In this document: one piece after another, positions 9,182-64,000 of the stretch
Numbering within the stretch: position 1 is the first letter of the stretch
How the letters are laid out: every line of letters starts with the position of its first letter
Source of the DNA: Isurus oxyrinchus
Taxonomy: Eukaryota
Direction of reading: 5' to 3'
Length of the DNA stretch: 64,000 nucleotides
Assembly (NCBI GenBank): GCA_026770705.1
Contig: JANJGN010000026.1
Span: 33,294,001 to 33,358,000 of the forward strand
Made by a program: the position numbers and the translations under genes
The notes under the pieces: model-generated
What the model was told of the DNA's origin: nothing
The model's database searches: none
What the model saw: only the letters and a program-made list of their open reading frames with translations

Positions 9182-10182
9182 ACGAGGCTCTCCGTTCTCG
9201 CTGTAGCCTGGGGGCATTCATTGTCGATAAGAGGATGAAACGTTTATAAAAAAGAATATTAATTTCTGGATGAATCAATGTGAAAAGCAGAGAGTTAATG
9301 TAATCTTTTTACCGACCGGTTGTTGGACCACATTTGCAGTATTACCAAAAGGAGACAGAAGATCAGGAGGAATAATTGGAGAGGATGGGGTTGTTCTTCC
9401 CAGTTAAGTCAGGACTGAGGGACAAGGTGGGAGAGATCTGTAAATGGCTGAAGGAGTTTGATGGGGTTGAAATGGAAAATCTTTCCACATGTCACAGATT
9501 ATAAAGCTACGAGCCACAAATACAGGAGTGGGAAAAGTTATCCAAAGGGGGATTCAGGAGAAGGTTTATTCCCATGGAACGGTTAAAGTGTTGAATTCAC
9601 CTTCACAAAGAGGGTTTCGGGTGAATAGTATCCCTAATATAATTGGTCAGGTGCTGGGGGAATGAAGAGAAGGATATGTTGAGAGAGAAAATGAAGAGTG
9701 ATGGAAGGTACTCCTGGTGATTGTAAACACCCACAGACACCAGTTGTGCCCAATAACCTTTTCTATCATCTGAATTATATCTACATCAATATAACACTGT
9801 CTGTGAACTATTGCTGTCAGTTCAGTTCAATTGAAGTAATACTCTCTGATTTCCTCTTCCTTTGACCGTGTGTTCCAGATCTGAGCGATGGAGATTCTGT
9901 TACTCAGAGGGAATCCTCGCTCACACAGGCAGAGTGAGAAGATGTCGCTTTAACCTGCATCTTTACCGGCGATGGTTATTACTTATCCTGGTGCTGTCAA
10001 TACCCAGACAGACAGCCCGAGTTTGCACTCCAGAGACACATGGGCGGTGATTCTGAATTTAAGGCGGATTTTGCTTAGAGCCGGTTTTCTGATACATTCC
10101 AGCAGACAGACAGATTGTACCGATTGACCTTCTCGGAGCTGCGGCTGTCTGACACTGCAGTATATTACTGTGCACTGAGTCT
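9182..10182 (+). pseudogene. TCR alpha/delta V pseudogene (V5), same family as V1; V exon 9879-10182
   Basis: Exon DLSDGDSVTQRESSLTQAE*EDVALTCIFTGDGYYLSWCCQYPDRQPEFALQRH...FA*SRFSDTFQQTDRLYRLTFSELRLSDTAVYYCALS. RSS CATAGCG (10183-10189), 12 bp, TCAATAACT. Decayed leader near 9182-9227 with TGACGCCA and ATTGG upstream. The downstream flank matches 110-460. Confidence 0.9.
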
Positions 10183-10319
10183 CATAGCGATTGTTCCTCG
10201 TTCAATAACTGCTGCAGCTTTCTGGGTCACAGCTTCTCTCTGTTGAGGGCTGTTTATCACAGCGGGTCAGACACTGTCACGTGAATCCATTCCTACTAGC
10301 ACAAGAACAAGTACAACAA

Positions 10320-12250: not shown

Positions 12251-12878
12251 GGAATCTATCTCAGAATAGCACAATCTAGTTTCTTACATCCAGGTCACCA
12301 TAAGAAGACAAGTGTTATTCGTGGGAGCGTTGCTGAGCTGGAAGTCAGTGAATAGAAGCAGCTCGAGCTGCGCTGCAGCCAGTGTCCTCATTGTGGGAAT
12401 AGTTCCGCTGCTAGAGACCGGGGTTGGGCATAAGAGTCCGGTACGTTCATTAGGGACTGTCTTGATGTCCTGGGCCCACATCCCACCTTTAACAAACACC
12501 ACGCAATACGAACACATGCACCGACCTCCCGGGGTAAGGAGGGCGGCAGCACAACTGGCAGAAAGAAAAGCTCCCTAACCCCAGCCCTGTACAACAGAGT
12601 ATTGTGGGAGAGGATTTCACATCCGGGTCACAATCCCAATGTAGAGTCAGAAAATTGCAGCCTCCTTTTATCAACCTGCCTCTTATTCACAAAACATTTA
12701 GCCAGCGACCCAAGAACCGTGCGGCCCATCAATGATCTCAGCTAAGCTGCCCTTTGTAAATCAACTCGATCCCCTAAGGTATTTCAGTCCAGCCCTGAAG
12801 TCCGGTCTCCCAGTGCAGTCCAGGGCTGCAGTCTCCAGCTCCCCGTCACATAAACCCCCAGCTCTAGGCAGCAGAGCG

Positions 12879-13357
12879 ATGGGAATCCTCCTTGTTTTCA
12901 CCATGTGTGTCTGTATACCCCGTGAGTACCGATCAAACAAACCGACATGTTGTGGGTTTAATATAAAGCTGCTCGAGTCCATCCCAATTACAGAAAATGT
13001 CTGCGGGTTTAACCCCGCTCCGTGGTTCGGCTCTGATGGTCCATTACACTCTCTCTGTTTAATTTCCAGGCTCTTTCAGTCAGTCAGTGACACAGACCCC
13101 AGCAGCGGTGACCAGGAAGGAGTGTCAGTCTCTCACCATCACTTGTATTTATTATGGTTATTATTATTTACAAAATGGACATTTCTTCAAACAAACCCAG
13201 ACCGGGACAGAGTGGGAGCAGATCTCCAGCGGGGAGAGATTTGTTGTGTCGGTGAATAAAGCAGGAAAGACATTTTCACTGGAAATTCGGGACGTGAGAG
13301 TTGAAGACACCGCCAACTATTACTGTAAAGCTCAGTACAGGTACAACATTGGTTAAT
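12879..13357 (+). CDS. NAR-TCR V segment (IgNAR-like V), intact: leader 12879-12921, V exon 13070-13357
   Basis: Spliced GT-AG product: MGILLVFTMCVCIPRSFSQSVTQTPAAVTRKECQSLTITCIYYGYYYLQNGHFFKQTQTGTEWEQISSGERFVVSVNKAGKTFSLEIRDVRVEDTANYYCKAQYRYNIG*. VNAR-like (short FR2, no CDR2, KTFSLEI..V.VEDT..YYCKA) with an extra FR1 Cys (KEC). Confidence 0.93.
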
Positions 13358-13385
13358 CACAGAGGAAAAGGCCTGAACAAATAGC
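13358..13385 (+). other. 12-bp-spacer RSS of the NAR-TCR V
   Basis: CACAGAG (13358-13364), GAAAAGGCCTGA (12 bp), ACAAATAGC (13377-13385). Confidence 0.8.
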
Positions 13386-13731
13386 TCCGTACAATTAAAA
13401 TATATATTCTCCGGGCCCAGATAGTCGGGTTGATGTTATCATCGCTGGAATCTGATTACATTTTATTGTAATTTCCACCATTCCATTATCTTTCTTTGAT
13501 ATTTGTCTCGGTTTATATGAAGCGAACATCTCGTTCCCTGGACCAGTTACTCAGCGCTCAGGGCCTCACAAAGCACAGTGTGAGCCGGCAGACATTTTGA
13601 AACATTGAATATTGTTTATTTTTTTCAATCCGCTGAATATATGGCAGTTTCTACTGTCTGGTGATGATTTCCCGCCAGGTTGAGTTGTCGGTGGTTCTTG
13701 TGCCAGGGAGACTGAGAGCAGTGTTACTGTG

Positions 13732-13784
13732 GTGGAAATATGATTCTGTGGATGGATCCGGTACGATGTTGACTGTCATAGCCG
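13732..13784 (+). CDS. NAR-TCR J segment with upstream 23-RSS (13693-13731)
   Basis: GGTTCTTGT, 23 bp, TACTGTG, then WKYDSVDGSGTMLTVIA and donor G/GTAAGT at 13785. The phase matches the acceptor at 16399. Confidence 0.9.
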
Positions 13785-14479
13785 GTAAGTGACTCCAGCC
13801 ACCCTCCCCCTCACACATGTTGCGGCCTGTCCTAGCTAATGTTCACCCGCTGCTTTTTATTGTGATCAGTGTCAGTTCAGTCCCACGAAAAGGAAAACAG
13901 ATGGTTTTCATAAGGAAACCTCTCTGTTGGCTTTTTCGATTTGGGGGCAGAATATTATTCAGGAGCCGGGTCGAATGTCTAGGTGAAACTATGTGTGAGA
14001 TCTGTCGGACTAGGCGGTCAACGGGATCAGGGTGGGTGGAGGATGGAGTGTGGGGACGTGGGGGAGGGGATTTTAAGTTTGGAGGAGCATGAGGGTTCGC
14101 TGCATCTGAACCATTATTAGTTTCACTGGTACATCGGGGGCCATCAATCCCTCTGATTCACAATCCTAATCATTTGTAAGTTTGGAATTGCTAACATTTA
14201 TCTCTTTTGAATGTAGATTTTTGAGATACTGGATTGCTTTAATTTATCTGTATCTGTGATTTCTGCAAATTAAAACAACACAGAGCAGTGGGAGAGTGAG
14301 GATGATGCACTAAACTGCTAGAAGGGAACAGGAACAAAAGAGAACAATAATCATCGAAATCAAGAGAAAGGTTGGATGATTTCTGGGGGCCGTTCAAAAT
14401 TCTTCCTGGCACGAGGGTGGGGGGTGAGGTTTATGGAGGGAAAGGCTGCAATGGGTCCAGTCCGGAATGCTAGGTAAAC

Positions 14480-15480
14480 GCTTGGCCTCTTTGTTAGGGA
14501 AAGATCTAAATCCTTTGGAGTGAGTGCAACAAAGTTTCATCAGACTGATTGCTGAGATAAAGTCTTACGAGAAGAGATTGAGTTGTCTGGGTCTATATTG
14601 CCCCGGGTTTCGAGGAATTGAGATGTAATCTCATTTGAAACATGTAATATGGAAGACAGGGCAGATTCCCGGTGGATGTTTCCCAAGGCTGGAAAGTCTA
14701 TAACTATGGGTCAAAGTTTCAGAATAAACATTCGGCCATTAGAACTCAGAAGAGGAGAAGTCAAACCATTGTTGTGAGTCTGTACCTCAGAGAGCTTTGG
14801 ATACTCAGTGCTGACTGTACTTAGGACGGTATTCGATAGATCTTTGGATACTAAAAGAATGAAGGGATATGGGGGCACTGCTGTAATGTGATTTTGAGGA
14901 TGGAGATCAGCGACGATGTTATTGAATGGCAGAGCAGGTTTGAAAGGTGCTATAGCGGCCTCTCCATCTTTTTGTTAGGTTCTCTGCTTTGATTTCTTAC
15001 ATTCCTGAGAAATGCAATCAGCAACAATCCACGTCTCTCTAGAACGATTGAACAGGCTGGGCCACTTTTCACTGTAAAAGAGGAAACCGAGGAGATATCA
15101 GAGAAACCTTTTAATTATGAATGTGTTCAATCGGGTGGATGTGGAGCAACTGGTAATTTGTGGCTGAGTCCAGAGCAATAGGAGATTATTATAAGGTAGC
15201 CACTAATTGAAAATAAAAGGCATTAAGAAAAATACATTTGCATGAACACCTGTCAGAATGTGGAACTGGAGGTCACATGGATTGGCTGGAGCAGAGAGCA
15301 TTGATAGATTTATGAGAAGAATTCAAAATACAAGAGGAAGAGCGGAATAAACAGGCAGAAGGATGTGGACCGAATTGGTCATTTAGATTTCGGGCAGGAA
15401 GGGCTGGTTTGGAGTGTAAACATAGGCATCAATCAATTAAGCCGAATGGCCTATTCCTCTTCTGCAGATTGTGTATAATG
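14480..15480 (+). mobile_element. Two old CR1-type LINE 3' fragments in the intron between J and the supporting V
   Basis: Degenerate similarity to 40900-41435 (GAAGAGATTGAG..CTGGG, TTGAATGGCAGAGCAGG, GCCGAATGGCCT). Confidence 0.6.
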
Positions 15481-16399
15481 TAAAACCTTCGAGAATACTC
15501 CGCTCAGAGAACCAGGGACAGAATCAGTCAATGAGCGGAAGGAATTGAAATTGTCAGAGAGCCGGAACAGACAGCTCCCAGTGAGTAACAGGGAAACCAC
15601 TGCGGAAACTGAACAGACTGATCCCAACCGACAACTGAGAGAGATTGGGACAAGTTCCCACGATTGCAAAAAGCGCAAACAGCACATTAACGTAAAATAA
15701 AGTGAGAGTAACTGTAATTATTTCAAATTAAAAGGACACGGAGAAATTTGGGCCCTCATGTTAGATGAATATAGAGAAACAGATCAAAAAGCTGATAGAA
15801 ACTCCCGAGCAGTGGTCAACTCCAGCAAATGATTAACCTTTGACCACCTATGTTCACTATCGGTTTGGCCCAATCAGTGCTGATGAATCTCATCAAGTTA
15901 TTATGGATCTTGCTTTGATGCTAAACAGTTCGGTTAGTCTCGGGCAATTATTTTGGAAACTGATTGCTTCGCTGATAATAAAATGTCCCTTCTGGAAAAA
16001 TAGAAACAGAAATGTAATATACATTACATGCTGCACTGCAGTTGAAATCCGGTCCATCCTGTCGGTGCTGCCCCTCTAAAAATGCAACCCAATTATCCCC
16101 ACTACTCTCTTTCCCCGTAGCCCTGTGTTTTTCCATGTTCCAACATTTATCCATTACTCGTTTGGAAAACACCCTTAACCAATTTCACCGTCTGTTCAGA
16201 CAATGCATGCCAAATAGTAAGAACTCGCTCTGAAACACAAAATAACACCTCATCCTTTCACTGCTTCATATTTCAATAACAGTGAATGAAGGTAAAGCAT
16301 GTTATAAATTAAACAAACTCACCCAAAACCACAGCATCTACTGCGATTAACAAGTTTCCCAGTCTCTAAATAGATTAAGATCAAATTTTTCTCCTGCAG

Positions 16400-16705
16400 A
16401 TTCCAGTTCCATTGTATCCCAGAATCCGCCTGTCCAAACCTCTGCTGTGGGTGACACCGTTACTTTAAGCTGTGAGTATTCAGGTGTCTGTCAGTACACA
16501 GTACACTGGTACCGTCAGTCCCCAGGACAGGCTCCGGATTACTTGCTTCAGAGACATGCTTCAGGAGAAGAGGATAAAGAAAACACTGTTGGGGGGAGAA
16601 GTTCTGCTTCTATCGATCCTGCCGAGAAAATCAGCCGGTTAAATATCTCCAAACTACAACTGAGCGATTCCGCTGGGTATTACTGTGCACTGAGACAGCG
16701 CACAG
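16400..16705 (+). CDS. Supporting TCR-delta V (leaderless membrane-proximal V of NAR-TCR), intact
   Basis: Acceptor CTCCTGCAG at 16399. Exon (D)SSSIVSQNPPVQTSAVGDTVTLSCEYSGVCQYTVHWYRQSPGQAPDYLLQRHASGEEDKENTVGGRSSASIDPAEKISRLNISKLQLSDSAGYYCALRQRT. CDR1 cysteine present. No leader exon seen upstream. In frame with the J donor. Confidence 0.93.
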
Positions 16706-16802
16706 CACAGTGATACAGAGCACGGAGGGTGCCATACAAAAACCTGAACATGGAGGGATTAGACACAGTGATAAAGAGCAGGGAGAGAGCTGTACAAAAC
16801 CT
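16706..16802 (+). other. Two tandem 23-RSSs after the supporting V
   Basis: CACAGTG (16706), 23 bp, ACAAAAACC (16736-16744), and CACAGTG (16764), 23 bp, ACAAAACCT (16794-16802). Period 58 bp, with a decayed third unit near 16825. Confidence 0.92.
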
Positions 16803-18339
16803 GAACATGGTGGGATTACAGACATACAATGACACAGAGTGCAGGGATATTGGGAACTCAAACATTATTCACGAACATTTTCTCAAAGGTTGTCCGCATT
16901 TTACCGCACAGGATAAAGTGCTTAAACTGATCAGGTCTGCATTTCCTTCTCGCTCCTCCCACCCTTGAATTTTCCTCTCTGCCCAATGCTCCTGTGAATA
17001 TACTTCATGAAATTATTTCACATTCTCACACTCCATTATTTCCCATGAATCGGTATTTTACCGATTCATAATAACTCAAGTGAGTTTATTGCCACCTTTT
17101 TCTACGGGGACCGGGAGATTTTTTTTCTCTCTCTTGTTTGGTCCAGTCCGCCTTTTACCGATTGAGTTGATAAGAAGTCACCGCCTCCTGTGATTTCCCG
17201 GATTCTGCCTACGATCGGCTGAGAGATTCCCTCAACTCAACAGGACATTTACTGTCTGTTGGAACCGAAAACTGGGGCACCTCTCGACTAGAAAGGATTT
17301 AGATCCAGACATGTAAGATAGCATCTCCCACAATTGAGCGTAGCTGGGAGTGGCCTCTATCTGTGACACGGACCGCTCTGCACTCGGGACAAACGGGCCA
17401 CACATGAGGACTGGAACAACACAGCCTCTTACAATCGGCCTGTTCTATTTTAATCAACCGCCGCAGCTGCGCAGCGGGTTACTGGCCTCAAACATGACCG
17501 AAATCAAGTTTTATGAAGCTGATCAATGATTTCCCCATAATGGATGACGTCAAAATGCCTTCTATCAGTCACAGCCCATGTTTCACCCAATCAACCAGGG
17601 CCAGGGGGTCGGGGATCGGTGGGTGGGGTAACAGCCGGGAGTGGGGCGCCTCCAGCTCAGCTGATAGCCTGGGCATAAGAATGGAGGCTATTTGACTAAA
17701 GGATGTAATCAGGAGCGAAATGGTGCTGGGCAAATAAATTACAACTGTTTCAAAGTCTGGATTTAGCTCAGTTTAGGGCCCCATTGTTCATAATTGATAT
17801 TAGAACATGCCTGGAGGCCGGATGTTACGTCACTATCCGTGTTCTCCTCTGTCTCCCCTGAGCAATTAGAGCTGCTCCGTCAGGTCTCACTACCTTCTCC
17901 CATTCCTCACTTAGATCAAGGGGGCGCTAATAAGATGATTTTGACCAGGTTCTCTCTTTCACCTGGTGAATCCTGTAAAGGGTACAAAGATATGAAGTCG
18001 AGGTAACTCTTTTTAGGCGAGGCCCCCAGAAGAAGTCCAGAATAAGCGTTGCCCACAAGTTGTTCATGCCCTGACAAGGTGTCTCAGGGAGTCTCCCAAT
18101 GTGGTTCACTTCACAGGTGCAGCAACAATGAGCATGAAAGGGTGACCCCCTGTCAGTGGCGAGCGTCCCTTTAAACTGCGTTTGCAATTAACACCAAGAT
18201 CGTGTTTTTTCCCCATCACCTGGACTCTGTTGGAGAGTGATTTACTTGAAGAATTTGCACCAACCGCTGTGCAGCATCTTTAAGTAAAGCGAGCACGCAT
18301 TTTTGCAGCCTCACTGCGGCTCCCAGCTCTGACTTCAAC

Positions 18340-60280: not shown

Positions 60281-60758
60281 ATGGGAATCCTCCTTGTTTT
60301 CACCCTGTGTGTCTGTATACCCCGTGAGTACCGATCAAACAAACCGACATGTTGTGGGTTTAATATAAAGCTGCTCCAGTCCATCCCAATTACAGACAAT
60401 GTCTGCGGGTTTAACCCCGCTCCGTGGTTCGGCTCTGATGGTCCATTACACTCTCTCTGTTTAATTTCCAGGCTCTTTCAGTCAGTCAGTGACACAGACC
60501 CCAGCAGCGGTGACCAGGAAGGAGTGTCAGTCTCTCACCATTACTGTATTTATTATGGTTATTATTATTTACAAAATGGACATTTCTTCAAACAAACCCA
60601 GACCGGGACAGAGCGGGAACGGATCTCCGGCGGAGGAAGATTTGTTGTGTCGGTGAATAAAGCAGGAAAGACATTTTCACTGGAAATTCGGGACGTGAGA
60701 GTTGAAGACACGGCCAACTATTACTGTAAAGCTCAATACAGGTACAACATTGGTTAAT
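60281..60758 (+). pseudogene. Second NAR-TCR V, frameshifted; 12-RSS at 60759-60786
   Basis: Leader 60281-60323, exon from 60472. ACCATTACTGTATT versus ACCATCACTTGTATT in copy 1 is a 1-bp deletion at the first canonical Cys (about 60545). Confidence 0.88.
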
Positions 60759-61139
60759 CACAGAGGAAAAGGCCTGAACAAATAGCTCTGTACAATTAAA
60801 ATATATATTCTCCGGGCCCGGATACTGAATTGTCGGGTTGATGTTATCATCGCTGGAATCTGATTACGTTTTATTGTAATTTCCACCATTCCATTATCTT
60901 TCTTTGATATTTGTTTCGGTTTATATGAAGCGAACATCTCGTTCCCTGGACCAGTTACTCAGCGCTCAGGACCTCACAAAGCACAGTGTGAGCCGGCAGA
61001 CATTTTGAAACATTGAATATTGTTTATTTTTTTCAATCCGCTGAATATATGGCAGTTTCTACTGTCTGGTGATGATTTCCCTCCAGGTTGAATTGTCGGT
61101 GGTTCTTGTGCCGGGGAGACTGAGAGCAGTGTTACTGTG

Positions 61140-61192
61140 GTGGAAATATGATTCTGTGGATGGATCCGGTACGATGTTGACTGTCATAGCCG
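61140..61192 (+). CDS. Second NAR-TCR J segment with 23-RSS (61101-61139)
   Basis: Coding sequence identical to 13732-13784. Donor GTAAGT at 61193. Confidence 0.88.
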
Positions 61193-63806
61193 GTAAGTGA
61201 CTCCAGCCACCCTCCCCCTCACACCTGTTGCGGCCTGTCCTAGCTAATGTTCACCCGCTGCTTTTTATTGTGCTCAGTGTCAGTTCAGTCTAACGAAAAG
61301 GAAAACAGATGGTTTTCATAAGGAAACCTCTCTGTTGGCTTTTTCGATTTGGGGGCAGAATATTATTCAGGAGCCGGGTCGAATGTCTAGGTGAAACTAT
61401 GTGTGAGATCTGTCAGACTAGGCGGTCAACGGGATCAGGGTGGGTGGAGGATGGAGTGTGGGGACGTGAGGGAGGGGATTTTAAGTTTGGAGGAGCATGA
61501 GGGTTCGCTGCATCTGAACCATTATTAGTTTCACTGGTACATCGGGGGCCATCAATCCCTCTGATTCACAATCCTAATCATTTGTAAGTTTGGAATTGCT
61601 AACATTTATCTCTTTTGAATGTAGATTTTTGAGATACTGGATTGCTTTAATTTATCTGTATCTGTGATTTCTGCAAATTAAAACAACACAGAGCAGTGGG
61701 AGAGTGAGGATGATGCACTAAACTGCTAGAAGGGAACAGGAACATCAGAGAACAATAATCATCGAAATCAAGAGAAAGGTTGGATGATTTCTGGGAGCCG
61801 TTCAAAATTCTTCCTGGCACGAGGGTGGGGGGTGAGGTTTATGGAGGGACAGGCTGCAATGGGTCCAGTCTGGAATGCTAGGTAAACGCTTGACCTCTTT
61901 GTTAAGGAAAGATCTAAATCCTTTGGAGTGAGTGCAACAAAGTTTCATCAGACTGATTGCTGAGATAAAGTCTTACGAGAAGAGATTGAATTGTCTGGGT
62001 CTATATTGCCTCGGGTTTCGAGGAATTGAGATGTAATCTCATTTGAAACATGTAATATGGAAGTCAGGGCAGATTCCCGGTGGATGTTTCCCAAGGCTGG
62101 AAAGTCTATAACTATGGGTCAAAGTTTCAGAATAAACATTCGGCCATTAGAACTCAGAAGAGGAGAAGTCAAACCATTGTTGTGAATCTGTACCTCAGAG
62201 AGCTTTGGATACTCAGTGCTGACTGTACTTAGGACGGTATTCGATAGATCTTTGGATACTAAAAGAATGAAGGGATATGGGGGCACTGCTGTAATGTGAT
62301 TTTGAGGATGGAGATCAGCGACGATGTTATTGAATGGCAGAGCAGGTTTGAAAGGTGCTATAGCAGCCTCTCCATCTCTTTGTTAGGTTCTCTGCTTTGA
62401 TTTCTTACATTCCTGAGAAATGCAATCAGCAACAATCCACGTCTCTCTAGAACGATTGAACAGGCTGGGCCACTTTTCATTGTAAAAGAGGAAACCGAGG
62501 AGATATCAGAGAAACCTTTTAATTATGAATGTGTTCAATCGGGTGGATGTGGAGCAACTGGTAATTTGAGGCTGAGTCCAGAGCAATAGGAGATTATTAT
62601 AAGGTAGCCACTAATTGAAAATAAAAGGCATTAAGAAAAATACATTTGCATGAACACGTGTCAGAATGTGGAACTGGAGGTCACATGGAGTGGCTGGAGC
62701 AGAGAGCATTGATAGATTTATGGGAAGACTTCAAATTACAAGAGGAAGAGCGGAATAAACAGGCAGAAGGATGTGGACCGAATTGGTCATTTAGATTTCG
62801 GGCAGGAAGGGCTGGTTTGGAGTGTAAACATAGGCATCAATCAATTAGGCCGAATGACCTATTCCTCTTCTGCAGATTGTGTATAATGTAAAACCTTCGA
62901 GAATACTCCGCTCAGAGAACCAGGGACAGAATCAGTCAATGAGCGGAAAGAATTGAAATTGTCAGAGAGCCGGAAGAGACAGCTCCCAGTGAGTAACAGG
63001 GAAACCACTGCGGAAACTGAACAGACTGATCCCAACCGACAACTGAGAGAGATTGGGACAAGTTCCCACGATTGCAAAAAGCGCAAACAGCACATTAACG
63101 TAAAATAAAGTGAGAGTAACTGTAAATATTTCAAATTAAAAGGACACGGAGAAATTTGGGCCCTCATGTTAGATGAATATAGAGAAACAGATCAAAAAGT
63201 TGATTGAAACTCCCGAGCAGTGGTCAACTCCAGCAAATGATTAACCTTTGACCACCTATGTTCACTATCGGTTTGGCCCAATCAGTGCTGATGAATCTCA
63301 TCAAGTTATTATGGATCTTGCTTTGATGCTACACAGTTCGGTTAGTCTCGGGCAATCATTTTGGAAACTGATTGCTTCGCTGATAATAAAATGTTCCTTC
63401 TGGAAAAATAGAAACAGAAATGTAATATTCATTACATGCTGCACTGCAGTTGAAATCCGGTCCATCTTGTCGGTGCTGCCCCTCTAAAAATGCAACCCAA
63501 TTATCCCCACTACTCTCTTTCCCCGTAGCCCTGTGTTTTTCCATGTTCCAACATACATCCATTACTCGTTTGGAAACACCCTTAACCAATTTCACCGTCT
63601 GTTCAGACAATGCATGCCAAATAGTAAGAACTCGCTCTGAAACACAAAATAACACCTCATCCTTTCACTGCTTCATATTTCAATAACAGTGAATGAAGTT
63701 AAAGCATGTTATAAATTAAACAAACTCACCCAAAACCAGAGCATCTACTGCGATTAACAAGTTTCCCAGTCTCTAAATAGATTAAGATCAAATTTTTCTC
63801 CTGCAG

Positions 63807-64000
63807 ATTCCAGTTCCATTGTATCCCAGAATCCGCCTGTCCAAACCTCTGCTGTGGGTGACACCGTTACTTTAAGCTGTGAGTATTCAGGTGTCTGTCA
63901 GTACACAGTACACTGGTACCGTCAGTCCCCAGGACAGGCTCCGGATTACTTGCTTCAGAGACATGCTTCAGGAGAAGAGGATAAAGAAAACACTGTTGGG
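63807..64000 (+). CDS. Second supporting TCR-delta V (5' part, truncated by the window end)
   Basis: Matches 16400-16593 and is open so far. Confidence 0.9.

Follow-up and report, generated by a model that had tools for sequence, protein, structure and literature searches.

A NAR-TCR cassette of Isurus oxyrinchus with an apparently germline-joined V-D exon

Introduction

Is the double-V cassette at positions 12879-16863 of a 64,000-nt stretch of the Isurus oxyrinchus genome an ordinary T-cell receptor (TCR) gene of the NAR-TCR type? The stretch, referred to here as the window, covers positions 33,294,001 to 33,358,000 on the forward strand of contig JANJGN010000026.1 (C26; NCBI GenBank assembly GCA_026770705.1). 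NAR-TCR of cartilaginous fish is characterized by a leader-bearing NAR V with a cysteine in the a-b loop and no tryptophan in the WYRK motif, followed by a leaderless supporting V-delta with a cysteine in complementarity-determining region 1 (CDR1) (PMC1845163; this and all other reports are cited for the portions of their text available to this analysis). The window cassette shares these features, as well as the organization into two separately rearranging units. In the known NAR-TCR, both domains arise from separate somatic VDJ joins, whereas the first unit of the window cassette reads as VD-joined, with no free D and a terminal stop codon (PMC1845163). Judged from its sequence, the NAR V is germline-joined to its own D, and a separate D is the only NAR-TCR feature compared that it lacks. 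An intact NAR-TCR cassette is ordinary and known; the germline VD join is what makes this one notable.

Germline joining of V and D

The NAR V carries a 12-spacer recombination signal sequence (RSS) that faces the 23-spacer signal of the NAR J, and no D lies between the two. Split cassettes, in which the segments remain separate, typically follow the layout V-22RSS / 12-D-12 / 23-J. When the window is compared with split cassettes, its 12-RSS and the following 433 nt match the D 3' RSS and the D-J intron, with identities of up to 85%; of 46 comparable cassettes, 45 place the D 3' RSS at offset 0 from the window 12-RSS. The V-D intron of about 390 nt and both inner signals are gone from the window cassette; when the V-D introns of 51 split cassettes were compared with window positions 12-18 kb, no match was obtained beyond a single 32-nt hit. 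The distance from Cys to heptamer is 31 nt, shorter than the mean sum of about 39 nt in split cassettes (V end, 16-26 nt; D, 11-20 nt; n=42), as expected of a trimmed coding joint. The lost intron, the alignment of the 12-RSS to the D 3' signal and the short Cys-to-heptamer distance together point to a germline-joined VD. A lone CACAGTG at about 13575 was considered as a candidate D and rejected, as it has no nonamer and forms part of an ordinary D-J intron.

A contig of run X3 (13310-13535, 6 differences) spans this junction. A 1126-nt contig of run X1, which is guessed to be RNA and may be DNA, covers 13068-13859 in unrearranged form with 13 differences, and model P0002 of C. carcharias contains the same VD junction with open exons. 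Given these three occurrences, the junction is inherited rather than an assembly slip.

Six distinct VD junction classes, comprising 13, 2, 1, 4, 3 and 3 Vs, were identified in the genome, each having removed the inner signals, as have the 24 full VDJ joins. Germ-cell joining of the RAG type, including VD joining, is established for shark immunoglobulin (Ig) genes (PMC2193156), and the fusion in the window was most likely made by RAG acting in germ cells. An ordinary genomic deletion would be compatible with a junction too diverged to reveal P or N nucleotides; the D remnant also resists assignment to a parent D, the nearest split cassettes being 10-15% diverged, and this counts against a RAG coding joint. 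However, both breakpoints lie no more than about 15 nt from the two inner heptamers of the ~390-nt intron, and likewise in the six VD classes, making an ordinary deletion very unlikely. In three VD-joined loci, L053, L055 and L056 (C26:29987241, 30013678 and 30036288), which form the class YTYKNFTM, the 12-RSS has been destroyed, and a junction resembling this class was observed in the Cetorhinus model P0027.

Genome survey and relation to IgNAR

The own-genome search returned 151 matches; among the 150 listed, about 143 were of NAR-TCR type and 7 were IgNAR-like. After three Vs without a readable second Cys had been dropped, 107 NAR Vs were classified, with about 33 of the ~143 lying outside the classification: split or degenerate Vs account for 57 of them, VD-joined Vs for 26 and fully joined VDJ exons for 24. 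The window cassette belongs to a family of 13 near-identical copies, 9 of them intact, with a mean difference of 1.2%; nine of the 13 lie on C26, and the unplaced contigs may repeat haplotypes. In a tree of 100 distinct rows, whose topology may be blurred by gene conversion, the family groups as a single clade (100/96) well separated from the IgNAR clade; it is nested within the split Vs, as are the other joined classes. Because of this nesting, the joined state is regarded as derived, and the cassette is classified as a NAR-TCR variant despite its missing separate D.

Searches against PDB sequences bear on the alternative that the window V belongs to a secreted IgNAR cluster: the NAR V gave 24 matches at E<=1e-12, and the best of these were VNAR domains (E down to 8e-17). 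Its identity to the seven IgNAR-type Vs of the same genome is nevertheless 41-44%, and these Vs retain the tryptophan of framework region 2 (FR2), lack the FR1 Cys, have longer multi-signal V-to-J spans and form their own 100/100 clade, whereas a TCR-type V is the next exon after J in the window. IgNAR membership was ruled out by the tree and the exon order, the window V also having the FR1 Cys and no FR2 Trp, and its probability is close to nil. The initial annotation, made from the sequence alone, had named clustering with secreted IgNAR loci as one outcome that would speak against it; the window V instead groups with NAR-TCR Vs. Its assignment of the cassette to NAR-TCR is likewise upheld by the defining features other than a separate D, by this grouping and by TCR-delta D-J-C elements on the same contig.

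Organization of the cassette

The exons of the cassette (Table 1) have GT/AG sites and phase-1 junctions, and the J and supporting V read through in frame. A GT..AG joint from 12921 to 13070 is present in a contig of run X2 that is paralogue-like (10 differences in 168). At the site of the FR2 Trp of the WYRK motif, the NAR V reads GHFFKQ; its frame ends in YRYNIG-stop, the TAA lying one base before the heptamer. The initial annotation had described the leader, V, J and supporting V as open with compatible splice phases and the module as complete and apparently functional. The phases and exons agree with that description, but the V frame ends in a TAA, and the functional reading is qualified by the VD-joined state, the terminal stop, a changed heptamer and an altered upstream motif. 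The extra cysteines that it had recognized in FR1 of the NAR V (RKEC) and CDR1 of the supporting V (SGVCQY) were both located. Of the 107 NAR Vs examined, 92 were readable and all of these have the former; of 60 supporting Vs, 44 were readable and 42 have the latter.

Table 1 Features of the window discussed in the text
Feature	Position	Strand	Remarks
Altered upstream octamer-like motif	12753..12761	+	same altered form in 13/13 family copies
Leader exon	12879..12921	+	43 nt, phase 1, GTGAGT donor
NAR V-D exon, read as germline-joined	13070..13357	+	acceptor before 13070; D remnant ~13347-13357; in-frame TAA 13354-13356
FR1 Cys (RKEC) of NAR V	13123-13125	+	
12-spacer RSS, apparently the former D 3' signal	13358..13385	+	heptamer with one change, position 6
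23-spacer RSS of NAR J	13693..13731	-	both motifs, heptamer and nonamer, found also in J signals of split cassettes
NAR J segment, DGSGT type	13732..13784	+	open, phase 1, GTAAGT donor
Leaderless supporting TCR-delta V	16400..16705	+	open, in phase with NAR J; CDR1 Cys (SGVCQY) 16489-16491
Tandem 23-RSS array	16706..16863	+	perfect copy 16706, second 16764, degenerate third ~16825
Second copy of VD-joined cassette	60281..64000	+	V frameshifted, 1-nt loss near 60545; supporting V crosses window end
Dead conventional V accompanying cassette copies	9887..10183	+	

A search of the 700 nt upstream of the supporting V revealed no ATG-to-donor exon. Supporting Vs carry one to eight tandem 23-RSS copies, with two to eight in 25 of the 32 that have enough downstream sequence. 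An AlphaFold model of P0002 (pLDDT 76, pTM 0.54) contains two Ig-like strand sets, and Foldseek returned only generic tandem-V antibody constructs. The interdomain Cys bond of NAR-TCR is itself described as putative (PMC1845163).

Predicted assembly and use

TCR-delta D-J-C elements are located on the same contig at C26:29.90-29.93 Mb, on the minus strand and 3.4 Mb away, and consist of C-delta, a 12-D-23 segment and Js with 12-RSSs. Altogether, two TCR-delta-like D-J-C units were observed, at C26:29902127 (-) and C242:616927 (+), with 71% and 75% identity to the C used as query; one 12-D-23 segment and a row of Js were found in each, and the two could be two loci or two haplotypes.

A single 12/23 cut would join VD to J, and the joint would be productive only with at least 2 nt trimmed, a step that would remove the terminal stop. 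A T cell assembling the tip domain would likely be spared one cut. The supporting V could recombine through its 23-RSS with a 12-RSS at D-delta or J-delta. As C-delta on this contig lies on the opposite strand, such a join would invert the intervening 3.4 Mb and move the cassette along with it. After splicing, the predicted chain is L-VDJ-V(D)J-C-delta, in which the first, N-terminal part of CDR3 (one half) would be fixed and an interdomain disulfide is putative. With its worn signals, the cassette would be a low-use member, amplified recently along with its dead neighbours. On balance, we favor the view that it is a VD-joined NAR-TCR, that is, a double-V TCR-delta gene, which would be usable but inefficient.

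Several observations weigh against usability. In a toy simulation, none of the in-frame VD-J joints was open at 0-1 nt trimmed and 42% were open at 2 nt; the proportion reached 76% at 3 nt and exceeded 90% from 4 nt. Not one of 50 split-cassette D 3' signals has the heptamer variant of the window. The upstream motif, presumably an octamer, is altered in all 13 family copies, whereas an octamer-like form is present in 23 of 27 other readable cassettes. Additionally, four of the 13 copies are broken, and amino-acid changes are not depleted within the expansion when calibrated on introns (15 observed against 14.1 expected; 11 against 15.5). RSS changes outside CAC are reported to be tolerated (PMC2193808).

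Such wear would also fit a cassette that is germline-joined yet effectively silent, a decaying passenger kept open only through young duplications. The copies have had little time to diverge by their low mean difference, the terminal stop, drifted heptamer and altered upstream motif are fixed in all of them, and in adult sharks, expression of joined H-chain genes was reported to be undetectable (PMC2193156). Against silence, none of the 13 copies has a change in its splice sites or 12-RSS, which is not significant alone, the same junction has open exons in the C. carcharias model, and the ratio of nonsynonymous to synonymous rates (dN/dS) against split paralogues is below 1, at about 0.5 for the V framework (n=41) and about 0.4 for the supporting V (n=15). 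A silent passenger is possible, although we consider it rather unlikely.

Purifying selection shows only over deeper time, in this comparison with split paralogues. A first count of nonsynonymous to synonymous changes (N/S) of 26/19 (p=0.003 vs site expectation) was initially suggestive of purifying selection and was rejected because a dead neighbour behaves alike (3/7) and intron-calibrated rates show no loss of nonsynonymous changes. The earlier proposal that selection acted on the cassette during its duplications is accordingly not sustained, given the undepleted nonsynonymous changes, the same synonymous excess in the dead V and the broken copies.

Across positions 12700-17000, four sequencing runs, available as assembled contigs, contained neither a J-to-16400 joint nor a rearranged VD-J joint, which speaks for neither view; the two runs guessed to be RNA do not cover the supporting V. 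The X1 contig aligns from the V acceptor (13068), and its other 327 nt, unlike the window leader or intron, may represent an upstream exon of an unrearranged transcript. A RAG-independent tip, in which the unrearranged VD is spliced to J as RNA, using a GT donor at the end of VD and an AG acceptor within the J signal, is suggested by the RefSeq model P0002, which reads YRYNI-AVLLW-WKYD in frame. However, the same AG is reused in models of other cassettes (P0008, P0013 and P0017-P0019) and thus looks like an annotation habit; moreover, the donor is non-consensus, the acceptor has no pyrimidine tract and the X1 contig is unspliced across VD-J. Splicing of this kind is therefore highly improbable.

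Fully joined VDJ exons and multi-V cassettes

The 24 fully joined VDJ exons differ from the other NAR Vs in several respects. Their leader is dead, through a stop, a lost ATG, a lost donor or a deletion, in 21 of 24 cases, compared with 12 of 83 others, and 23 of 24 lie no more than 10 kb behind another NAR V on the same strand, compared with 4 of 83. No supporting V was seen between such NAR V pairs, although not every interval was fetched whole. The exons themselves are largely preserved: an open frame behind an AG acceptor is found in 19 of 24, and none of the 24 has lost the phase-1 J donor or lacks a CDR3 Cys. Because one or two joins may have given rise to them all, these counts do not represent independent events. 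In one X2 contig, the NAR J end abuts a V acceptor, with a loose end at 13067.

Multi-V cassettes consist of a leader-bearing rearranging V, then one to three germline-joined VDJ exons, then a supporting V. Examples are found at C26:38769374>38750348, 37914977>37894876, 35936085>35946104, 31164889>31154555, 30061971>30051617 and others, and multi-V loci include L017, L083, L048, L036, L079 and L080. The four runs searched against locus L079 were swamped by repeats and uninformative.

The layout predicts TCR-delta chains with three to five V domains. A broader scenario, to which we assign even odds, is that RAG acting in the germline produced a series from split cassettes through half-joined tips, with the window as a middle stage, to leaderless VDJ stalk domains placed between the tip and the supporting V; the resulting chains would carry three to five Vs, with each CDR3 Cys pairing with the FR1 Cys of the domain above. 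The Heterodontus RefSeq model P0003 likewise has the order J-V-J-supporting V; its two junctions are identical, it lacks a CDR3 Cys, and it could reflect either an independent tandem or an artefact of the model.

Comparison with known systems

In shark Ig genes, VD, VDD and VDJ IgH as well as NS4 VJ genes likewise occur as partial or full joins beside split genes, with signals removed in several independent events (PMC2193156). Those joined genes encode Ig, whereas the window cassette belongs to a TCR. Among TCRs, marsupial TCR-mu was described in 2023 as the only one with a germline-joined V (PMC7615758), and a pre-joined TRD VJ was reported in newts in 2025 (PMC12698447). Both place a germline-joined exon in a delta-type TCR, which in TCR-mu serves as an invariant structural domain. 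Unlike the window V, V-mu-j and the newt VJ represent complete joins, and retrotransposition is the origin proposed for V-mu-j; the window exon is half-joined, keeps its leader intron and occupies the tip rather than the support (PMC7615758, PMC12698447).

For C. carcharias, table S1 of PMC12227049 lists LOC121270140 as 'NARTCRdVV', the product name also borne by P0002, with a span of 3.84 kb compared with 3.83 kb in the window; from name and size, this gene is probably orthologous to the window cassette. That table gives no VD join for this gene, and the main text of the report, as available, does not discuss joined NAR-TCR. The same table labels white-shark LOC121270133 'NARTCR V(gj)V(gi)V', and this one-line supplementary label is the only literature trace of a multi-V arrangement found. 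NAR-TCR is described in PMC5931798, PMC6795676, PMC3457774 and PMC3964593, whose available portions do not mention joined segments. No paper describing VD-joined or multi-V NAR-TCR was found in a search whose scope lay outside the primary NAR-TCR reports and other supplements (e.g., Note XI of PMC3964593).

The VD join matters because as recently as 2023 marsupial TCR-mu was considered the only TCR with germline-joined exons. Repeated access of RAG to TCR genes in germ cells is suggested by the presence of full VDJ joins and no fewer than six VD junction classes within a single shark TCR locus. Germline joins would imply semi-invariant T-cell receptors, and a 13-copy family with a fixed CDR3 half could serve as a marker for repertoire studies and in the search for NAR-TCR ligands. 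If chains with three to five Vs are expressed, sharks would possess length-variable, antibody-tipped TCRs.

Cassette copies and neighbouring pseudogenes

The second cassette copy in the window sits in a duplication of about 47 kb with 97-99% identity. Another member of the family, L094 (C26:36473065), has intact exons and has lost about 1.3 kb from the J-to-supporting-V intron.

Conventional V pseudogenes in the window number 12-13 copies of about nine types, counted as 11 by tblastn, a ~47.3-kb copy by self-alignment and one weak remnant at 21.5 kb. The initial annotation had reported nine such Vs, all pseudogenes; the copies are more numerous, and every readable one is indeed broken. The pseudogene at 9.9 kb was found upstream of 9 of 9 other cassette copies checked, and one stop is common to 10 of its 11 copies, in agreement with the earlier suggestion that dead Vs hitch-hike on cassette duplications. 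The sole copy without the shared stop, L145 (C26:36519700-36529699), has an open frame.

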